A stretch of DNA of 61,791 nt, the filler included, from Globobulimina sp. (taxonomy: Eukaryota): assembly GCA_003354225.1 (NCBI GenBank). It is 21 parts of 21 records of this genome, joined end to end, with 100 filler letters (N's around TTAATTAATTAA, not from the genome) between each part and the next. Parts side by side here need not be neighbours in the genome. Positions count along the whole stretch, not along the records: positions 14,746 to 17,593 come from PIVH01004633.1; 20 more parts are not named here. One strand, 5' to 3'. The notes beneath the pieces were generated by a model that was not told the origin of the DNA, searched no databases, and was given only the letters and a program-made list of their open reading frames with translations. Both the position numbers and the translations under genes were made by a program. The number at the start of each line of letters is the position of its first letter. Position 1 is the stretch's first letter. This document shows positions 11,552 through 20,541 of this stretch, one piece after another.

Positions 11552-12447
11552 GTCTACTTCAAAATCATAAATCTAGAAGGCTACTACACTGTTAAAATGT
11601 TTTTGTAACTTTACATAATATTTTATGAAATCGATTCTTCCAATAAATTACATGTAATCTTACATGATTATTAATGTAAAGTGACAAAAACTTCTAANNN
11701 NNNNNNNNNNNNNNNNNNNNNNNNNNNNNNNNNNNNNNNNNTTAATTAATTAANNNNNNNNNNNNNNNNNNNNNNNNNNNNNNNNNNNNNNNNNNNNCGT
11801 ATCCAGTGCGCAAACAATTGAGATCACCAAAAAAAATGAGAAATAAATTGAAAAATATATTAATGTTAATTTTAATGAAGTATCCATTTTAATGAGGATA
11901 GTATCAGTATTAGTATTAGTATAGGAAGTAGTACAGGTTCACGAGTTAGACTTGAAAAACTAACCTGTTTTTGTGTTTATGAAATGTTTTCAGGATTGGA
12001 AAGGAAATTTCAAGGCCGAGAAAAAAAGTTCACAATAATAAATACATTGAACCAAATACTAAAAACAATTCAAATGTTTTTGATACAAACTTTGATCCGT
12101 ATGATAACATTGAACCATATTTTGTTTCATATAAAAATGTTAAAAGGTATAATAACATCATCATATTTGAAATAATAATATTGATTATGATGGCATGACT
12201 TTTGAATATAAATTTTGAATATCCCCAAAGGCGTTGTCCCAACTTGTAGAATTATACAACTTTTCATGTACAAGTTGAAGACTAGTGTTCATGATTTGTA
12301 GCTTGTTCATGACTTGTAGACTGTGCATGACTTGTAGACTTTAAATGTGTATTGTTGCATATTGTTGTCTATTCACATAACGTCTTTCTATACAGAGAAA
12401 TCTACATCTTTCTACATACAACAGCAAAGAATAAATCCCATCCGGAT

Positions 12448-14529
12448 ATGAATTCATATTTTCGTAATCACAAAATTAAAATTCCAGCAAATGACATTCA
12501 AAATTGCATATTATGCGATGAATACATTCCATTTAATTTGAAACGTCAGAAAACTGGACATTTCATAAACGTTACTGAGATTTGGAGGCTTTATATTGAG
12601 TGTAATATTATGGTCGCATCAAATCATCAATACTGTAATAAATCACATACTCAAACATTGGATAATATGGATACTGTTTTGTTTGTTGATATGCAAAAAA
12701 AAACAAACCATTCCATTAAATCATATCATAGAACATTACAAATAATATCATATTATTTATTCAAATCAAAAACAGTTTATTCCGGCAATAACGCCCCAAA
12801 TAATTCGAATATGCCGGTATCAAAAACAAAAACAGTTCCTAATAATTCCAACCATAACGAGAATGAATTGGATCCATTGCTTAAGATATCCCTATTAATT
12901 AAACCTATAATACATAATTTAAATGTATACGACATAGAATCATTTGGATCTGTTGGGCGTTCAACAAATAATCCAACAAAACATCCTGCAAATAATTCAG
13001 CAACAATCCATCCGACACTTCAAACAAATTATACTTCGAATAATATTAATATTATTACAAATAATTCCGCAGATAATAGCTTGCACTCAACGGATAGATT
13101 TGAGGCAGGAACATTTGGGTCAGATACATTTGAGCCAGATACATTTGCTTATAATACATTGGATAATACATCAGATAATACAGATATTTATATTTCTTAT
13201 CAAAACTCCAAAGATGACCGCATTAAAAGCTTTACCAGATTGGAGCGCAAAAACATCATAGCCTTAAATAAAATTTCTGGCGTTTCATATAATGAGTTAT
13301 TTGCGTTTTACAGTCGCATGTATAGACATCCATCATATAGCTGGGGACAACATATATTTGGTTTAAGCCATAGTAAAATTGGCAGAGTAATCGGTTGGAA
13401 TTCGGCTGCAGTTAATATGCTGTATCAAAAATTCGTTCCAAAACAATTATTTATGTCTTGGAATAGGGATAAAATTATCAATAAAAATACACCAAAGCAT
13501 GTTAAACAAATGTTAGGTGCTGGCGATGATCAGGTTATTTTAGTAACGGATGGCTCCAAGTTTGCAGTGCAAAAATCCACGGATCATACTATACAAAGAA
13601 AAGATTATTTTTGTGATAAAAAACGTAAAGCAGGTAATTATATTAATTTTATGCCTTTTTTGACTACGAGCGGAAAATATGTGTTTGATATTGGGGCATT
13701 TCATGGTAACGGGCACAATAATGATGAAACTATATATTCATTAATGACAGATATTGAGTATTTGCGTGATTGTTTATGGGATCAACTCCGAAATCCGAAT
13801 TATAATAAAGATCTCCACGTTTTTAATTTGGCCCAATTGAATTTATTGATATGGTTTAATACTGAAATATTTTTAGAAGATGATATTTTGATTGCAGACA
13901 GAGGATATAATCGTAATCGAGCCAATGATAATAGAATCATAACGCCCTCAGGCGTTATGAAATTGACTAAAAAGCAGAAAAAAGCGGGATGTGTACAGAT
14001 AAAACAATTGAGTACATCTGTGGCCAATGAAAGTCGTATCACAACATTTCTTAGATACTTAATTGAAGCTGCATTTGGTCGATTGAAACAATGGGCAATA
14101 ATGCATAGTGTGATTGATCATAATGACCGTAAAGCGTTTTCAAAATATCTCCATATATTGATGGCAACCGAAAATAAATTTTTTAAACCATTATGTATTG
14201 ATACTCTCAAACGATTAGAGAATACGCAGCGAATATTGGATCATCAAAATGATGAAGAAAATAAGTACAAAGCCTTCATCTTGCCTTACGCAAATAAAAA
14301 CTCGTTAAAAAGAAGCGTTGACTGGCAACCTGCAGCAAATATTAAACATATTAATTACAGAACGAATATTCAGCACTGGATTTTAAAGAATCCATATATA
14401 CCAGATTTTGACGAACAAGATATTATAGAATTAGGTATGTCCAACAGTTCATTAATGAAAGCATATGCATATGTGGCTGACTCTAAGTCAGTGGAAATAA
14501 TTCATTTTTATTTTATTTCCAAAAAGTGA
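12448..14529 (+). mobile_element. PIF/Harbinger (ISL2EU-like) DDE transposase
   Basis: DDE_Tnp_4 motifs ILVTDGS..VQKS....QRKDY, TTSGK, NDETI, ILIADRGY and QLST..ANESR..T.LRYLIEAAFGRLKQW. Confidence 0.85.
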
Positions 14530-14749
14530 GATCGCGATATAGAACTAAAGTGTTTCGTGAATGTGTGGTTGATTTTACTCCCCCTTGTAATCAAAATATT
14601 AATAATATCAATAATTTGCCGAGTGGGAAACGATTGCTTTATATANNNNNNNNNNNNNNNNNNNNNNNNNNNNNNNNNNNNNNNNNNNNTTAATTAATTA
14701 ANNNNNNNNNNNNNNNNNNNNNNNNNNNNNNNNNNNNNNNNNNNNTGAG

Positions 14750-14822
14750 GAGCCCTGTGCGGGAAAACCGCACGCAGGGATCTGTGAGAGGGCGGTCGGG
14801 TAACTGGCCGGTCTATCTCGAT
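14750..14822 (+). mobile_element. 3' end of a bacterial group II intron (domains V and VI)
   Basis: DV is GAGCCCTGTGCGG-GAAAA-CCGCACGCAGGGATC, with the AGC catalytic triad and a 2-nt bulge. DVI is GAGAGGGCGGTCGG-GTAA-CTGGCCGGTCT-A-TCTC, with a bulged branch A and a terminal AT. The AGC triad and long DV point to a IIB-type rather than IIC-type intron. Confidence 0.9.
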
Positions 14823-14838
14823 GCTCAAGGATTAAGAT

Positions 14839-15564
14839 ATGTTACCTATCGAAAGCGTAAGCCAATTTCTTGATGAAGTTAGAGCTGTAAAACAAGACAG
14901 TCTTGAGCGGGGAGAAAAAAGCGATTTAATTTTCAGAGGTCAAAAAGCAAAGTATAAACTCCTGCCCAGTCTTTTAAGATACAATGAAAAAGAGAAGAAT
15001 GAATTAGAACAATTAGAGCAACTATCACTTGTCGAACTCAAGCGAGTAAGTCCACCACTGGTTGATATTATACCAGATGATGATTTTGATTGGGTTGTAA
15101 TAGCTCAGCATTTTGGTTTGCCGACTCGCTTACTTGATTGGACATACAATCCTTTAGCTGCTTTATGGTTTGCAGTATCCGAGTTTAAAAATAGACAAAG
15201 TGAGGATCAAGATGAAGCTTCCGTTTGGATATTCAACCCATCTTTAGAAGATTATAAAAAACAACAAAATATTAGTAGCACAATTTTCAATATTCAAGAA
15301 AACATAATTTATCGACCAAGAAACTTAATATCCAGAGTTTCAAATCAATCAAGTGTTTCCACACTTCATGCTCTATATATTGATAACCATTTGGAAAACG
15401 ACCCCAATTTTATAAAAAACCTTTATTGGCATAAAATTAAAGTAGGATGCGAAGAGACTATTCTTGAAGAACTTCACTATTTAAATGTTAATGAAGCTAC
15501 AATTTTTCCGGATTTAGGTGGTTTGTGTAACCATTTAAAGTGGCGATATTTTGAAAAAAAATAG
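14839..15564 (+). CDS. FRG-domain protein (integron gene cassette 1)
   Basis: Motifs IFRGQ...LLPSLLR, AQHFGLPTRLLDWTYNPLAALWFAV and TIFPDLGGLC. AAGGA RBS, no introns, and the stop codon abuts an attC site. Confidence 0.9.
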   Translation: MLPIESVSQFLDEVRAVKQDSLERGEKSDLIFRGQKAKYKLLPSLLRYNEKEKNELEQLEQLSLVELKRVSPPLVDIIPDDDFDWVVIAQHFGLPTRLLDWTYNPLAALWFAVSEFKNRQSEDQDEASVWIFNPSLEDYKKQQNISSTIFNIQENIIYRPRNLISRVSNQSSVSTLHALYIDNHLENDPNFIKNLYWHKIKVGCEETILEELHYLNVNEATIFPDLGGLCNHLKWRYFEKK

Positions 15565-15624
15565 AGCTAACAAGGCTAATTCAGCCGACGCCAAAAACCG
15601 CGCGGCTGATTAGCGGCATTATGC
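15565..15624 (+). other. attC: Integron attC site 1 (60 bp)
   Basis: R'' AGCTAAC directly follows the stop codon. The stem GCTAAT(T)CAGCCG(A)CGC pairs with GCG-CGGCTGATTAGC, leaving two extrahelical bases. R' reads ATTATGC, with the conserved G of GTT replaced by A. Confidence 0.85.
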
Positions 15625-15660
15625 ACAAGAGAAGAAAACCATAGACTAAGGAATGTTACA

Positions 15661-16350
15661 ATGAAATTTGACAAATATAATCGAACAGCAAGAATTTATC
15701 CTTCAATAATAATTTTGTTACCATTTTTGATATTTACAATTTATTGTGACATCGGAAGTCTAAAGGAAGTATTTGATGATTTGCTTAAAGTTAAAATAAT
15801 AGGAAATATTACAATTTCTGTAGTATTGATATATTTTCTAACTCAAGTAAATAGATTCTTAGGGAAATTTCTATTTGAAAAAAATATGTTCAATAATGAA
15901 TTAGAAATGCCCACAACAAATTTTTTACTATGTAGCAACTCAGAATTTTCTAAAGAATATAAAAAACAAATGCGTAAACAAATTAATAAGGACTTTCAAA
16001 TTGACTTACCTGATGAACATGAAGAAATTTCAGATTTAAAAAATGCAAGAAAAAGAATTGTTGAAGCAGTTGGATTAATTCGACAAAAAGTAAAAAATGG
16101 AAGGCTTTTATTACAGCATAATATTGAATATGGCTTTGCGAGAAACTTAATTGGTGGAGCAATAATTGGATTAATAATGTCTGCATTTGATATAGCTTAT
16201 TTTTTCAATCATGGAAACAATTTAATTGGAGGTATAAGTATCGCTTTGACAATAGGATTTGGACTTCTTCTACTTATTCATAAGCCAATTATTAAGCATT
16301 TAGGTAACCAATACGCAAAACGTTTATTTCAGGAGTATTTACAAAAATGA
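15661..16350 (+). CDS. Four-TM membrane protein of unknown function (cassette 2, gene 1)
   Basis: 229 aa with four hydrophobic segments around a soluble loop. Conserved-looking ARIYP and LLLQHNIEYGFARNL motifs. AAGGA RBS. Its stop overlaps the next start (ATGA). Confidence 0.75.
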   Translation: MKFDKYNRTARIYPSIIILLPFLIFTIYCDIGSLKEVFDDLLKVKIIGNITISVVLIYFLTQVNRFLGKFLFEKNMFNNELEMPTTNFLLCSNSEFSKEYKKQMRKQINKDFQIDLPDEHEEISDLKNARKRIVEAVGLIRQKVKNGRLLLQHNIEYGFARNLIGGAIIGLIMSAFDIAYFFNHGNNLIGGISIALTIGFGLLLLIHKPIIKHLGNQYAKRLFQEYLQK

Positions 16351-17291
16351 TACGAATACACTTTATTAATGTAGGTCATGGAGATTGTATAGTTGTCGAA
16401 TTTAAGGATTCTGGCAGAGTTGCAGTTGTAGATATTAATATGACAGAAGACATGGATGAAACTACTAAATCCGAATTATTATTAGAGGCGTTAAGTAAAA
16501 TACCAGCAATTAATAAACAATACTTTGATGCTGGCATGATGACTGCGGAAGAAATATTAATCAAAGCGGGGTATGATATAAAACTGCAAAACCCTGTGAA
16601 CTATATGACTGATAATAATATAAATAGTATTTTTAGGTTTATATCTACTCATCCCCACATGGACCATTTGTCTGGAATTAAGCAGTTACACGATAGTAAA
16701 ACCATTGGAACTTTATGGATTTCAAAAAATACACACACACAAGATGAATCAGAACTTTCTGACTCTCAAAAGGCTGATTGGAAGTTTTATAAAAAATACC
16801 GAGACACAAATGAATATCTTTTAGATGATGTTTATACTATTAGACCAAAAGACGGAGATTCAAATAATTATTGGAAAGAAGATAAAATTACGATTTTAGC
16901 ACCACATACTGAATTACTTAAAAATGCCAATTCCAATATATTAAGTTATGTATTACTAATTGAGTACGCAGGTAAAAAAATTATTCTTGGTGGAGACGGA
17001 GAAGAAGCAACATGGGAATATATAATGGAAAATTACAGTGACCTAATAAAGGATGTTTCTATTCTAAAAGCATCCCATCATGGTCGGGATAGTGGATATC
17101 ATCAAAAGGCAGTCAAGCATATGAATCCAATGTATACAATTGTTTCTGTGGGGAAGAAACCTTCAACTGATGCTTCGAATAAATACAGACAATATTGCGA
17201 TAATGTCTGGTCTACAAGGTGGAAAGGGAATATTGTTTTTGAAATAAATTCGGATGGCAGTTGGACATATAAAACACAATATGACAGATAA
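16347..17291 (+). CDS. ComEC/Rec2-like metallo-beta-lactamase-fold hydrolase, stand-alone (cassette 2, gene 2)
   Basis: Motifs IHFINVGHGDC, THPHMDHLSG (HxHxDH), LGGDGE, LKASHHG and IVSVG. No competence channel domain. Confidence 0.9.
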   Translation: MIRIHFINVGHGDCIVVEFKDSGRVAVVDINMTEDMDETTKSELLLEALSKIPAINKQYFDAGMMTAEEILIKAGYDIKLQNPVNYMTDNNINSIFRFISTHPHMDHLSGIKQLHDSKTIGTLWISKNTHTQDESELSDSQKADWKFYKKYRDTNEYLLDDVYTIRPKDGDSNNYWKEDKITILAPHTELLKNANSNILSYVLLIEYAGKKIILGGDGEEATWEYIMENYSDLIKDVSILKASHHGRDSGYHQKAVKHMNPMYTIVSVGKKPSTDASNKYRQYCDNVWSTRWKGNIVFEINSDGSWTYKTQYDR

Positions 17292-17298
17292 CCCCAGT

Positions 17299-17428
17299 GC
17301 ATAACAATGTATATAAAAAATTGCCTAAATAGTAGTAAAGTTAAGTGTCATAGCCCGATTGAACTTTGCAGTGAATTGAAAAATGAGCGCTTCGAAATCG
17401 ACAATTTTTCATATGCTCACCGTTGAGA
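17299..17428 (+). other. attC: Integron attC site 2 (130 bp, long type)
   Basis: R'' (GT)GCATAAC is complementary to the cassette start TTATGCAC at 15619. GTATATAAAAAATTGCC pairs with GACAATTTTTCATATGC. R' is GTTGAGA. Confidence 0.8.
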
Positions 17429-17445: not shown

Positions 17446-17518
17446 GCATAACAAATCACTCCACTGGATTTTTACTCCGCTGGCGCTCCACAAAAACAAC
17501 TGATGCCAGACGAACCCT
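17446..17518 (+). other. attC: Degenerate attC site 3
   Basis: GCATAACAAATCACTCCACTGGATTTTTACTCCGCT...CTCCACAAAAACAACTGA shows an attC-like left half and a partial stem, but no GTT at the expected R'. Confidence 0.55.
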
Positions 17519-17693: not shown

Positions 17694-18335
17694 AGTTTAT
17701 TTTATTATCAGCAGTCACTTTATTTTGCAAAACAAGCGGAAACGTTACTGGAACGATTGCGGAACATGGTACAGTTGGAAACGCATAGGAACGCAATGCA
17801 GAAATCGCATTCAATGTCTTTTATTGACGAAGAATCCGTAAAAAAAAGCAAAACAAATATCAAAGACATTGAAAAGGAATTTTGCAGACATTATCACAAA
17901 GATAGACTGAATCAATGTGATACAGAACGTATACCGCAATCAGCGGCATTATCAGATGCAACATTGGATGCAAAAAGAGAGAAAAAGCAGTTACAAAAGT
18001 TATTTAGAATAACATATCATGCAATTATTCACAAACTCAGTTCGTATCGGTTATTGAATGTAACTGCCATCCACAAAATATGCAAGAAACATGATAAAAA
18101 TTCCCATTTCAAACACTTACAGACTGAGATAGATTCACTGCTGGATTCAGTGTCAAATTTTGGTGACGGCCATTTCGAACAATATCTCATTCAACGCTTA
18201 GAGAGTGCATACGGTCAATTTCTATCCTCGCCCAATCACAAAAAAAAATGTCAAGCCATACAGCAATTGCGCGCATTGGGCAGCATTCCGCGCACTCAAT
18301 GCATTAAACCAATTATCAAAAGACTCCGTCACTGA
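17694..18335 (+). CDS. SPX domain fragment (XPR1/SYG1-like N-terminus)
   Basis: LSSYRLLNVTAIHKICKKHDK is the SPX phosphate/InsP-binding motif. ...KKKCQAIQQLR resembles the SPX C-terminal end. Confidence 0.7.
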   Translation, partial: SLFYYQQSLYFAKQAETLLERLRNMVQLETHRNAMQKSHSMSFIDEESVKKSKTNIKDIEKEFCRHYHKDRLNQCDTERIPQSAALSDATLDAKREKKQLQKLFRITYHAIIHKLSSYRLLNVTAIHKICKKHDKNSHFKHLQTEIDSLLDSVSNFGDGHFEQYLIQRLESAYGQFLSSPNHKKKCQAIQQLRALGSIPRTQCIKPIIKRLRH

Positions 18336-20541
18336 AATCAAATCATACGCGAAACCGCCGCCCATTGTTATCTCTGTGATGTCTGCAGTTATGATATTAT
18401 TAAAGCAAGAAACGTCGTGGGCCGCCGCTAAAAAAGCCTTATCCGACGCGAATTTTTTATTAAAATTGAAAGAATATGACAAGGACAGTATATCTGCCTC
18501 GATATTAAAGAAAATTAAAAAATATACGAAGTCTCCAGATTTCTGCTACGAACAAGTCAAATCAAAGAGTATTGCGGCCGCAGCAATGTGTAATTGGGTG
18601 TGTGCCATGGAGATATATGCCAATGTTAACAAACAGGTTGAGCCTAAAAGGCAGAGTCTACGCAAAGCAGAGAAGATATTGACCGAAAAGCAAGGCTCGC
18701 TCAGGATTATTATGGCTGAATTGGCGGAGGTTGAGAAGATTGTAAATAATTTGCAAACGCAATTCGATTCGAACGAGTGTGAGAAGAAAGAGTTGGAAGA
18801 AAATTCAGAATTGTTAGAAACCAAATTATTGCGCGCAGGACAATTAGTGGAGGGACTGAGTGGAGAGAGGAGTCGGTGGGAAACGTCGATCAAACAATAC
18901 AAGCAATCCATAAAAAATCTAATTGGAGATTGTATTATTGCTTCTTCGTTTGTTTCCTATTTTGGTGCATTTGACAGTGAGTATCGCATCGAGTTAATGT
19001 GTCTGATAACCAATAAAATAAATTGTCAGGAAAAGACCAGCATTGTCAATTTATCGGAAGATTTCAATTTTAGTGCGTTTCTATCCAATCCAATTGATTT
19101 GCGGCAATGGAGAATATGCGGCTTACCGTCGGATGATTTTTCATGCGATAATGGTGTATTGGTAACGAAGGGAAATAGATTTTCGTTAATGATTGACCCG
19201 CAGTCTCAGGCAAATAAGTGGATAAAAAATTTATTTGGTGGTAATTTGCAAATTGTTGATTTGAAAATTGATTTTATGCGAGTTATTGAAGGTGCTTTGC
19301 AGTTTGGCACAGCCGTTTTATTACAAGATATCGAACAAGAATTAGATGCATCGTTAGACTCAATATTATTAAAAAAATTCATAGTTTCAGGCAATCGGAA
19401 ATATCTGAATATAAATGGCAAACTAATTGAATACAATCCAGATTTCCGGCTATTTATAACCACACGATTAGCGAATCCACACTATTCACCTGAAATATGT
19501 ACGAAAACATTGATTGTGAATTTTGCAGTGAAGCCAAAAGGTTTACAGGATCAGTTGTTGTCAATTATTGTGCAAGCAGAGGAACCAAAGTTGGAATCGG
19601 ATAAAAGCAAATTAGTAATCGCAGTGGCTGAAAATAAGAAAAAATTGATTGATTTGGAAAATAGTATATTGAATATGTTGTCGTCCGCCAAAGGCTCATT
19701 GTTGGACGATACCTCTCTGATTGATACGTTGCAACAAAGCAAAATTACATCCGAAACCGTCAAGGAATCACTTAAAATCTCGCAAGAGACTGAAAAAAAT
19801 ATTGATGCGGCCAGAGAGAACTATCGACCATCGGCGATACGCTCTTCTATTTTATATTTTGTATTGACGGATTTATCGAAAATCGATCCAATGTACCAAT
19901 TCTCATTGGAATCTTACATCTCATTGTTCAAAAAATCAATTCTCAATTCAGCCAAAAGCGGAAATGATGAAAGTGAAGATTTGGAGGAAAGAATTGAAAT
20001 TTTAAATGATTATCACACGAAAGCTGTGTATGATAATACCTGTCGTGGTTTATTCGAGAAACATAAATTATTATTTTCATTTAAAATTTGTATAAAGAAA
20101 TTGATTGAGGAAGAATGTAAAATTGATATCAATGAATATTTGTTTTTCTTAAAAGGTGGCGTTATTATCAACCGACCGCCAAATTTCCCACCAAATGTAA
20201 ACAGCGAATGGTTGGATAATAAAGCATGGGATAACATATTTTCACTCAGTATACAGTTTCCGAAGGTTTTCGGCGTTGAGTTGCTTGACTCAATGAACCA
20301 AAATGGACGTGCCTGGAAACAGTGGTATACCGATTCCCAGCCAGAGATAGCGCGTTTTCCTGGCGATTGGGACAATAAATTGTCAGAATTCCAACGTATG
20401 ATAATACTGCGATGTTTGCGTCCGGATCGCATTGTATTTGCAGCCAAACAATTCATTTCAAACAACTTAGGTCAAGAATTTATAGAACCGCCTTCGTTGA
20501 ACTTAGAAAATGTTTTATTAGATTCGACGCCAACTACACCA
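18290..20541 (+). CDS. Axonemal dynein heavy chain fragment (stalk/MTBD, AAA5)
   Basis: Motifs EIKSYAKPP, KSIAAAAMCNWVCAM, GLSGERSRW, GLPSDDFSCDNG, LMIDPQSQANKWIK, FRLFITTRLANPHYSPE, YQFSL, CRGLFEKHKLLFSF and RCLRPDR. Confidence 0.95.

Follow-up and report, generated by a model that had tools for sequence, protein, structure and literature searches.

Type I and type II architectures with transmembrane (TM) or patatin effectors are known for the cyclic oligonucleotide-based antiphage signalling system (CBASS) and the pyrimidine cyclase system for antiphage resistance (Pycsar). Activity of a further system, 6A-MBL, which has a metallo-β-lactamase (MBL)-fold hydrolase as its core enzyme, was reportedly described by van den Berg in 2024. 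Table 1 of Iyer 2006 lists, in row 6a, a triple-module protein together with a specialised MBL, and 6A-MBL is named among the known jumbo-phage defences. Ye 2024 treats “Type II CBASS/Pycsar/MBL” together, as pathways in which “their respective signaling enzymes” are conjugated. Both 6A-MBL and gene B of the PADLOC candidate system PDC-M48 (PDC-M48B) are thus already known; our literature search found no paper naming PDC-M48, and the literature searched, the primary 6A-MBL activity paper aside, gives no mechanism for 6A-MBL. Here we describe a two-gene integron cassette in a 61,791-base window (the whole stretch of DNA analysed) from the Globobulimina sp. assembly GCA_003354225.1. The cassette encodes a membrane protein with four TM segments (4TM protein) and a stand-alone ComEC-like MBL-fold hydrolase, and it is probably a relative of 6A-MBL that lacks cap2_3, the E2-E1-JAB gene found beside the MBL gene in that system.

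The window consists of 21 contigs of 2845-2850 bases each, sorted by length and linked by N/TTAATTAATTAA/N. Adjacency across these linkers is artificial, and the true genomic context of the cassette is confined to the 2848-base contig at 14746-17593. ORF (open reading frame) calling identified three plus-strand genes on this contig, encoding an FRG-domain protein, a 229-aa protein and a 314-aa protein (Table 1). The ORFs of the latter two (15661-16350 and 16347-17291) share the ATGA at 16347-16350, which leaves no room for an attC site between them, and an AGGAG lies approximately 12 nt 5′ of the ATG of the second. At the start of the cassette, TTATGCAC (15619-15626) is the reverse complement of the final 8 bases of GTGCATAAC (17297-17305). 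The cassette's own attC comprises an R″ box GCATAAC (17299-17305), the L″/L′ pair ATATAAAAAATTG / CAATTTTTCATAT and an R′ box GTTGAGA (17422-17428), and contains a 13-nt inverted repeat (I11) that is 92% complementary. A contig of a Cloacimonadota metagenome-assembled genome (L001) is homologous to window positions 15619-17424 (74.9% over 1823 columns; blastn with the 80 genome loci described below). The homology ends there on both sides, within two bases of the cassette ends at 15619 and 17422, and the sequences are unrelated before the G/A preceding TTATGC and again once the GTT in the 3′ box is passed. Since the homology is confined to the cassette, the two-gene unit with its 130-nt attC occurs in two different arrays, cut at the integron recombination points. 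Between the two copies the attC site is conserved, with its stem changed on both arms. The original prediction from this DNA, that the two genes are coupled within a single cassette, is therefore supported by the ATGA overlap, by the complementarity of TTATGCAC and GTGCATAAC, and by the ends of the L001 homology.

An attC heuristic with relaxed boxes gave a single match on the contig, at 17299-17428, where 0.1 were expected in shuffled sequences. The same heuristic found one further site on L001, and it misses L001's attC (approximately 1969-2096) and the A-TT-box attC upstream of the cassette. The strict RYYYAAC/GTTRRRY version proved too strict, giving zero matches anywhere. Judged by its fold alone, the cassette's own attC was no better than shuffled sequences (z -0.59; 52/200 as good), which is a weak point of the cassette assignment. 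The upstream attC, which belongs to the preceding FRG cassette, has an R″ box AGCTAAC (15565-15571) and an L″/L′ stem with one bulged base; the folding energy of its bottom strand is -15.3 kcal/mol (z -3.51; 0/200 shuffles as good). No sigma-70-like promoter site was found in the 42-nt leader at 15619-15660, as expected for a promoterless cassette.

Table 1. Positions, within the window, of the cassette, its genes and the neighbouring features.
Feature	Position	Strand	Basis
Two-gene integron cassette	15619-17422	+	Starts at TT of the R′ box before it, ends at G of its own
Gene for 4TM membrane protein, 229 aa, unnamed family	15661-16350	+	ORF calling, hydropathy, profile searches
Gene for stand-alone ComEC-like MBL-fold metallo-hydrolase, 314 aa	16347-17291	+	Motif, model, profile
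Cassette's own attC, 130 nt	17299-17428	+	Inverted repeat, heuristic match, conservation in L001
attC of the preceding (FRG) cassette	15565-15624	+	Sequence boxes, bottom-strand fold
Gene for FRG-domain protein, neighbouring cassette, outside the pair	14839-15564	+	Pfam FRG PF08867, 5.6e-24

The 314-aa protein carries HPHMDH at residues 102-107 and ends in ..TQYDR, and neither a TM segment nor a signal peptide was found in it. Pfam Lactamase_B_2 and Lactamase_B matched it with 20.1 and 18.9 bits, both under the gathering threshold. Its predicted structure (predicted local distance difference test, pLDDT, 91.2) was closest, among solved structures, to the MBL domain of ComEC (9ic4; Foldseek E 1.1e-15, target TM-score 0.78), with Pce, the phosphorylcholine esterase of pneumococcus, ranking next, and the profile of its family matched 9ic4 at 4.3e-36. 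These matches, together with the hydropathy of its partner, uphold the description of the pair as a 4TM protein and a stand-alone ComEC-like MBL. In PADLOC, for which no curated cut-off applies to this match, the protein hit PDC-M48B (PDLC04675, 8.7e-28, 95.4 bits; another model, 2.7e-17), and the partner MBLs of relatives matched PDC-M48B at up to 6e-103. In PHROGs it matched phrog_14556 (3.7e-19), which has no assigned function there, and the MBL-like region of phrog_7043, a 1077-position phage “tail protein” family (2.6e-14).

The 4TM protein has Kyte-Doolittle segments at 16-34, 41-59, 163-181 and 188-206. Lysine and arginine abound at both termini and in the 103-residue loop (60-162), which predicts an N-in/C-in topology; the AlphaFold2 model is all-helical (pLDDT 90.9). 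The motifs EMPTT and QHNIEYG..RN..GG are conserved and lie on the predicted cytoplasmic side, as do most of the residues that are invariant or nearly so among 82 members (R11, P14, P21, R65, K69, E80, P84-T85-T86, R141, Q152-H153-N154-I155-E156-Y157-G158, R161-N162, G165-G166, Y218 and E225). No family was found for the protein in Pfam (a chance DUF4446 match only, at E up to 1), PADLOC, NCBIfam or PHROGs. None of 26 diverse members matched PADLOC at E up to 10, chance CARF_TM matches aside. Foldseek of the model against the PDB returned nothing usable (best E 0.61, bacterial bestrophin, TM-score 0.25), and the best match of a wide VIA-align search was to designed helical bundles (Z 7.2, within the generic range). 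The best E was 0.64 against the viral structures of BFVD, the family profile had 0 matches to PDB sequences at E up to 1, and ESM Atlas yielded “hypothetical protein” clusters only. No match was found by tblastn against 50,697 phage records.

The family is nevertheless large: a profile search of 1.84 billion representatives recovered 1861 clusters (50% identity) at E up to 0.001, of which 934 passed 1e-10 and 305 passed 1e-30; almost all measure 220-245 aa. By word-indexed search, 278 homologues were retrieved; none of the 120 listed had a Pfam domain, and those bearing a name among the matches listed were all “hypothetical”. The distribution of the 4TM protein is patchy, extends over many phyla and is incongruent with taxonomy. 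A search for longer, fused homologues found none, which is weak evidence; one fusion did surface in the profile search. This metagenomic protein (P0222, 500 aa) joins PF01048 PNP_UDP_1 at residues 5-242 (4.9e-18) to the 4TM family at 270-496; the PNP-4TM fusion occurs on 7 contigs, and 3 contigs carry a variant of 537 aa. With P0222 as query, no full-length fusion was found over 401 Bacteroidota genomes, and its PNP part resembles the N-termini of Bacteroidota proteins of approximately 1020-1046 aa.

The two families are linked well beyond the window. A scan of 185,579 species genomes gave 110 matching stretches, 103 of which encode a 4TM relative. The best 80 loci were kept, their ORFs were called and clustered, representatives were compared with Pfam, PADLOC and NCBIfam, and MBL and E2-E1-JAB genes were located by tblastn. 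In 75/80 loci, spanning at least 10 phyla, a same-strand MBL gene lies no more than 100 nt from the 4TM gene, or only E2-E1-JAB stands between the two, and approximately one quarter of the loci have an E2-E1-JAB neighbour. The commonest arrangements are MBL-TM (29 loci) and TM-MBL (21 loci, including L017, wrongly so, since its adjacent MBL is upstream), followed by MBL-E2E1JAB-TM (13), MBL-E2E1JAB-TM-MBL (5), MBL-TM with E2E1JAB nearby (4), MBL-TM-MBL (2) and E2E1JAB-TM-MBL (1); the label of L003 derives from merged hits. The remaining five loci lack an MBL. In L007, L031 and L075 the 4TM gene sits at a contig end, L076 has a truncated gene, and L077 is an orphan. The conserved linkage set out originally as a check on the pair was thus found. 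Two conjugative plasmids show it as well: Runella pRUNSL03 carries MBL, SEC-C protein, TM and MBL, and Sagittula p6 a metallohydrolase, a 773-aa ThiF-family protein and TM. In both, the 4TM protein is annotated as “hypothetical protein”. On pRUNSL03, an MvaI/BcnI restriction endonuclease gene lies approximately 3 kb upstream of the first MBL; elsewhere, LexA/S24-like and ImmA/M78-like regulators, a type II methyltransferase and PDC-S39 stand beside relatives of the pair. The 33.7-43.1 kb region of the Runella slithyformis plasmid pRUNSL03 (L100) clusters three MBL-fold genes with the SEC-C protein, the 4TM protein and a large serine protease.

Closely related 4TM proteins are found with quite different partners. 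JGI (Joint Genome Institute) metagenome contigs encode 4TM proteins 64-94% identical to that of the window over the best aligned segment. Some of these lie beside an MBL of the 314-aa type (L091, L094, L095, L096 and L098), others beside a 6A-type MBL with the fusion, in the order TM-MBL-cap2_3 (L090) or MBL-cap2_3-TM (L092/L093). When 83 4TM proteins are placed on a tree, that of the window is sister to that of L090 (84% identity; Shimodaira-Hasegawa-like approximate likelihood-ratio support, SH-aLRT, 98), while the MBLs of the two share motif-level similarity only (BLASTP E 0.004). Presence of the fusion requires 11 changes on this tree, where shuffled labels need 21.1 on average; well-supported branches force no fewer than 9 of the 11. 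In this count L075 was treated as having no fusion, although part of one lies at the edge of its contig.

Loci with an E2-E1-JAB neighbour link the 4TM family to 6A-MBL. The 725-804-aa neighbour is an E2/E1(ThiF)/JAB triple fusion (Pfam Prok-E2_A, ThiF and Prok-JAB; PADLOC E1-E2 and JAB), so that these operons are of the type in row 6a of Iyer 2006. Both curated cut-offs are exceeded at L035 (Algibacter): NF058524 gives the MBL 343.8 bits (cut-off 220), NF058523 gives the fusion 540.4 bits (cut-off 320), and the 4TM gene comes directly after. A C-terminal glycine is present in 14/16 MBLs encoded directly 5′ of E2-E1-JAB (the exceptions end in A and ..GSK) and in 5/66 other MBLs; the window MBL ends in R, and its cassette has two ORFs only, with no E2-E1-JAB gene. 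This pattern matches the idea, as worded in Ye 2024, of an E2-E1 fusion that conjugates the enzyme of its pathway; the reading of the glycine as a defining feature of 6A-MBL is an extrapolation from CBASS.

Bona fide 6A-MBL loci were collected with NF058524 from 401 genomes of the class of L035 (5 above cut-off; 4 examined, G183 left out) and from 401 genomes of the order of L026 (10 above cut-off, all examined). All 14 loci examined have a third gene, which is membrane-directed in 13/14. In 6 loci (L035, L088, L115, L118, L119 and L089) it belongs to the 4TM family of the window, to which L089 is only remotely related (hhalign 87%, E 4e-6; against L118, blastp 2e-5). A further 4 have a different small multi-TM protein, upstream in L113, L116 and L117 and downstream in L114, assigned by hydropathy only and with no detectable homology to the window family. 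A patatin-like phospholipase, placed after cap2_3, takes the position in 4 (L087 and L088, Pfam about 1e-19; L120; L121), and a second MBL in L112; these classes total 15 for 14 loci because L088 holds both a patatin and a 4TM protein. The patatin of L121 is joined to the C-terminal end of cap2_3 in a protein of 1176 aa. None of the third-gene TM proteins has an NCBIfam model. The upstream proteins of L113, L116 and L117 form a family of their own (207-223 aa) that repeats the layout of the window family (two TM helices, a loop of approximately 90 aa and two TM helices), with mutual blastp matches of 1e-13 to 5e-62 and an hhalign probability below 1% to the window family (A3).

We propose that the cassette is a promoterless carrier of a two-gene anti-phage module of the wider 6A-MBL family, without cap2_3 and with a 4TM effector; as a whole, this explanation has in our view about an even chance of being right. 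A function in defence is suggested by the ties to 6A-MBL and PDC-M48B, by a mobile distribution incongruent with taxonomy, and by the defence-type neighbours (PDC-S15, PDC-S39, the methyltransferase and the regulators). The original prediction of a defence role gains from the PDC-M48B match, from the presence of the 4TM family in bona fide 6A-MBL loci, and from the match of the neighbouring FRG protein to the PADLOC candidate PDC-S15 (1.1e-63). In the proposed mechanism, a cytoplasmic ComEC-like MBL phosphodiesterase or nuclease, translationally coupled to a 4TM inner-membrane protein, would serve as the upstream, infection-responsive component in place of the CBASS/DncV-like nucleotidyltransferase (CD-NTase) of CBASS. 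The conserved basic cytoplasmic face of the 4TM protein would be the receiver, and this membrane effector would halt the infected cell. In fuller versions, cap2_3 may conjugate the MBL through its C-terminal glycine. A reaction product or a loosely specific contact would be a likelier link between the MBL and the 4TM protein than a co-evolved interface. Taken by itself, the assignment of the 4TM protein as the membrane effector, with the MBL upstream, is tentative and falls slightly short of an even chance. The third-gene slot looks effector-type because a patatin cannot be a sensor, and the patatin phospholipases in other 6A-MBL loci lend indirect support to the earlier suggestion that the 4TM protein may be a membrane-disrupting effector. 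That suggestion further supposed that the MBL might make or remove a nucleotide ligand of the 4TM protein.

Several observations weigh against this explanation. The R′ box of the upstream attC is ATTATGC (15618-15624), non-canonical in having A at the usual G; the site may be decayed or a variant. No integron integrase was seen on the 2848-base contig. The window MBL scores only 33.4 bits against NF058524, far under the cut-off of 220, so its link to the validated system runs via the shared 4TM partner and not via enzyme orthology. Its nearest relatives, the ComEC nuclease domain and the Pce esterase, are end-point hydrolases and not signal makers. As had been noted originally, no cyclase or nucleotidyltransferase is present: neither protein matched a cyclase or CD-NTase in Pfam, PADLOC or NCBIfam, and no small-molecule ligand was found. 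The NCBIfam models of 6A-MBL cover two components only (NF058523, cap2_3; NF058524, MBL), and Table 1 of Iyer 2006 calls row 6a “usually two genes”; in a two-gene system the MBL may suffice as effector.

A serious rival explanation, which we nevertheless consider rather unlikely, has the roles reversed: the MBL would be an effector nuclease acting on incoming DNA, and the 4TM protein a membrane sensor or anchor responding to phage entry or envelope stress. Sensor-then-nuclease working of this general kind is known from Kiwa and Zorya. Reversed roles would suit the relationship of the MBL to the ComEC nuclease domain, its best structural and sequence relative, and the tight spacing or overlap of the genes, which fits a complex. 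They would also suit several further points that count against an upstream MBL. PADLOC and NCBIfam matches of the MBLs are to the effector-type Avs1a, LmuA and DRT-associated MBL; HamMAB requires an active MBL; in a 6A-MBL of usually two genes, as in the row of Iyer 2006, the MBL is the sole candidate effector; and P0222 places the 4TM module behind an enzymatic, effector-type PNP domain, the usual position of a sensor or regulator. We favour the MBL upstream and the 4TM protein as effector because of three observations that reversed roles accommodate poorly. Patatins, one of them fused to cap2_3, are third genes in 6A-MBL loci, lipases being effectors and not sensors; 4TM proteins that share 84% identity occur with MBLs similar in motifs only, which is hard to fit with a specific interface; and the cap2_3-linked MBLs have a conjugation-ready C-terminal glycine, like CD-NTases. 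Within the favoured order of action, it is possible, yet improbable, that the MBL hydrolase is the signal-generating enzyme of a CBASS-like pathway, in which a phosphorylated molecule released on infection gates the 4TM protein or patatin and E2-E1-JAB is optional. A nucleic-acid cleavage product, for example, might then bind an invariant basic pocket formed by R11, R65, K69, R141 and QHNxEYG..RN, and the pathway would have its minimal “type I” form in the integron cassette.

Two-gene cassettes of chromosomal integrons are often toxin-antitoxin pairs, and two overlapping genes in a promoterless cassette would fit an addiction module that stabilises the array, with a 4TM toxin restrained by the MBL (e.g. 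by hydrolysis of an activating metabolite) and no dedicated anti-phage role. The earlier suggestion that the MBL removes a ligand of the 4TM protein is compatible with such a module. We give it little credence: among the contigs scanned, attC-like sites flank the pair only on the window contig and on L001, the other relatives lying in ordinary chromosomal or plasmid contexts; the gene order is variable, as the counts of MBL-TM and TM-MBL loci show; and the cap2_3, patatin and defence-type regulator genes nearby point to immunity. A housekeeping role, in a split ComEC-like DNA-uptake or membrane phosphodiesterase system with no part in conflict, is very unlikely indeed. Its attraction is that the MBL resembles the phosphodiesterase domains of ComEC and Pce and has a membrane protein as partner. 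The MBL, however, scores 41.5 bits against the ComEC model TIGR00361 (cut-off 190), over model positions 482-651 (the MBL part) only, and neither protein of the pair has a competence-domain or OB-domain match in Pfam or NCBIfam. Moreover, the pair is patchily distributed at odds with taxonomy and is carried by an integron cassette and by conjugative plasmids, and the MBL, having no signal peptide or TM segment, is predicted to be cytoplasmic, unlike the nuclease domain of ComEC.

The original prediction could not assign the pair to a named system. Our results place it beside 6A-MBL (NF058523/NF058524) as a cap2_3-less relative; a described system is therefore matched in part, which lowers the novelty of the pair. 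Like 6A-MBL, the pair has a core enzyme of the ComEC branch of MBL hydrolases, is mobile and patchy, and has a 4TM protein of a family found in bona fide loci. It differs in lacking E2-E1-JAB, in an MBL that is far below the 6A-MBL cut-off and without the C-terminal glycine, and in a 4TM protein that has no model in a system curated as two-component. With PDC-M48 of PADLOC-DB v2 it shares matches of its MBL to the gene B models, whereas no PDC-M48A match was found for the 4TM protein or any neighbour scanned. The resemblance to CBASS and Pycsar lies in an enzyme optionally primed by E2-E1 and JAB via a C-terminal glycine and in a variable TM/patatin effector slot; the enzyme of the pair, however, is a hydrolase and not a nucleotidyltransferase or cyclase, and its 4TM protein has no Pfam family. 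The C-terminal MBL nuclease domain of ComEC (9ic4 and full-length entries) is the closest solved fold and sequence relative, whereas the window MBL is stand-alone, predicted to be cytoplasmic, and without a competence channel or OB domain. Integron cassettes carrying phage-defence genes have reportedly been described in the literature of 2025, and the present cassette resembles these in being compact, promoterless, attC-bounded and next to a defence-candidate cassette (FRG, PDC-S15). No paper describing an MBL-plus-TM defence cassette was found in our literature search.

Neither the 4TM family, nor a two-gene form without cap2_3, nor a regular slot for a third gene turned up in the libraries and literature searched, the primary 6A-MBL activity paper aside. 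Our analysis thus ties a large unnamed membrane-protein family to 6A-MBL and reveals a version free of the ubiquitin-like module that moves as an integron cassette. Together, the third-gene pattern and the cassette version lead to a concrete, testable effector hypothesis, and the pair offers a minimal two-gene construct for dissecting an MBL hydrolase in immunity. It also enlarges the set of defence candidates carried by integron cassettes.

The PDC-S15 FRG cassette and the MBL/4TM cassette are two consecutive defence candidates on a 2.85-kb contig. In PHROGs, the FRG protein matched phrog_4962 (1.9e-40). The upstream boundary of its cassette was not found within 14746-14838, where a G+C-rich hairpin is present (z -1.8). 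On the other side of the pair, a second GCATAAC (17447-17453) was considered as an attC box and rejected; the next cassette has a 22-codon ORF that encloses it. Elsewhere in the window, one contig has a dynein heavy-chain fragment at 18205-20541 (Pfam AAA_9 1.9e-81, MT stalk 5.1e-47), and another a 725-aa ORF at 12352-14529 with a DDE_Tnp_4 transposase domain (1.2e-06). Both look eukaryotic, indicating that bacterial and eukaryotic DNA are mixed in the assembly.

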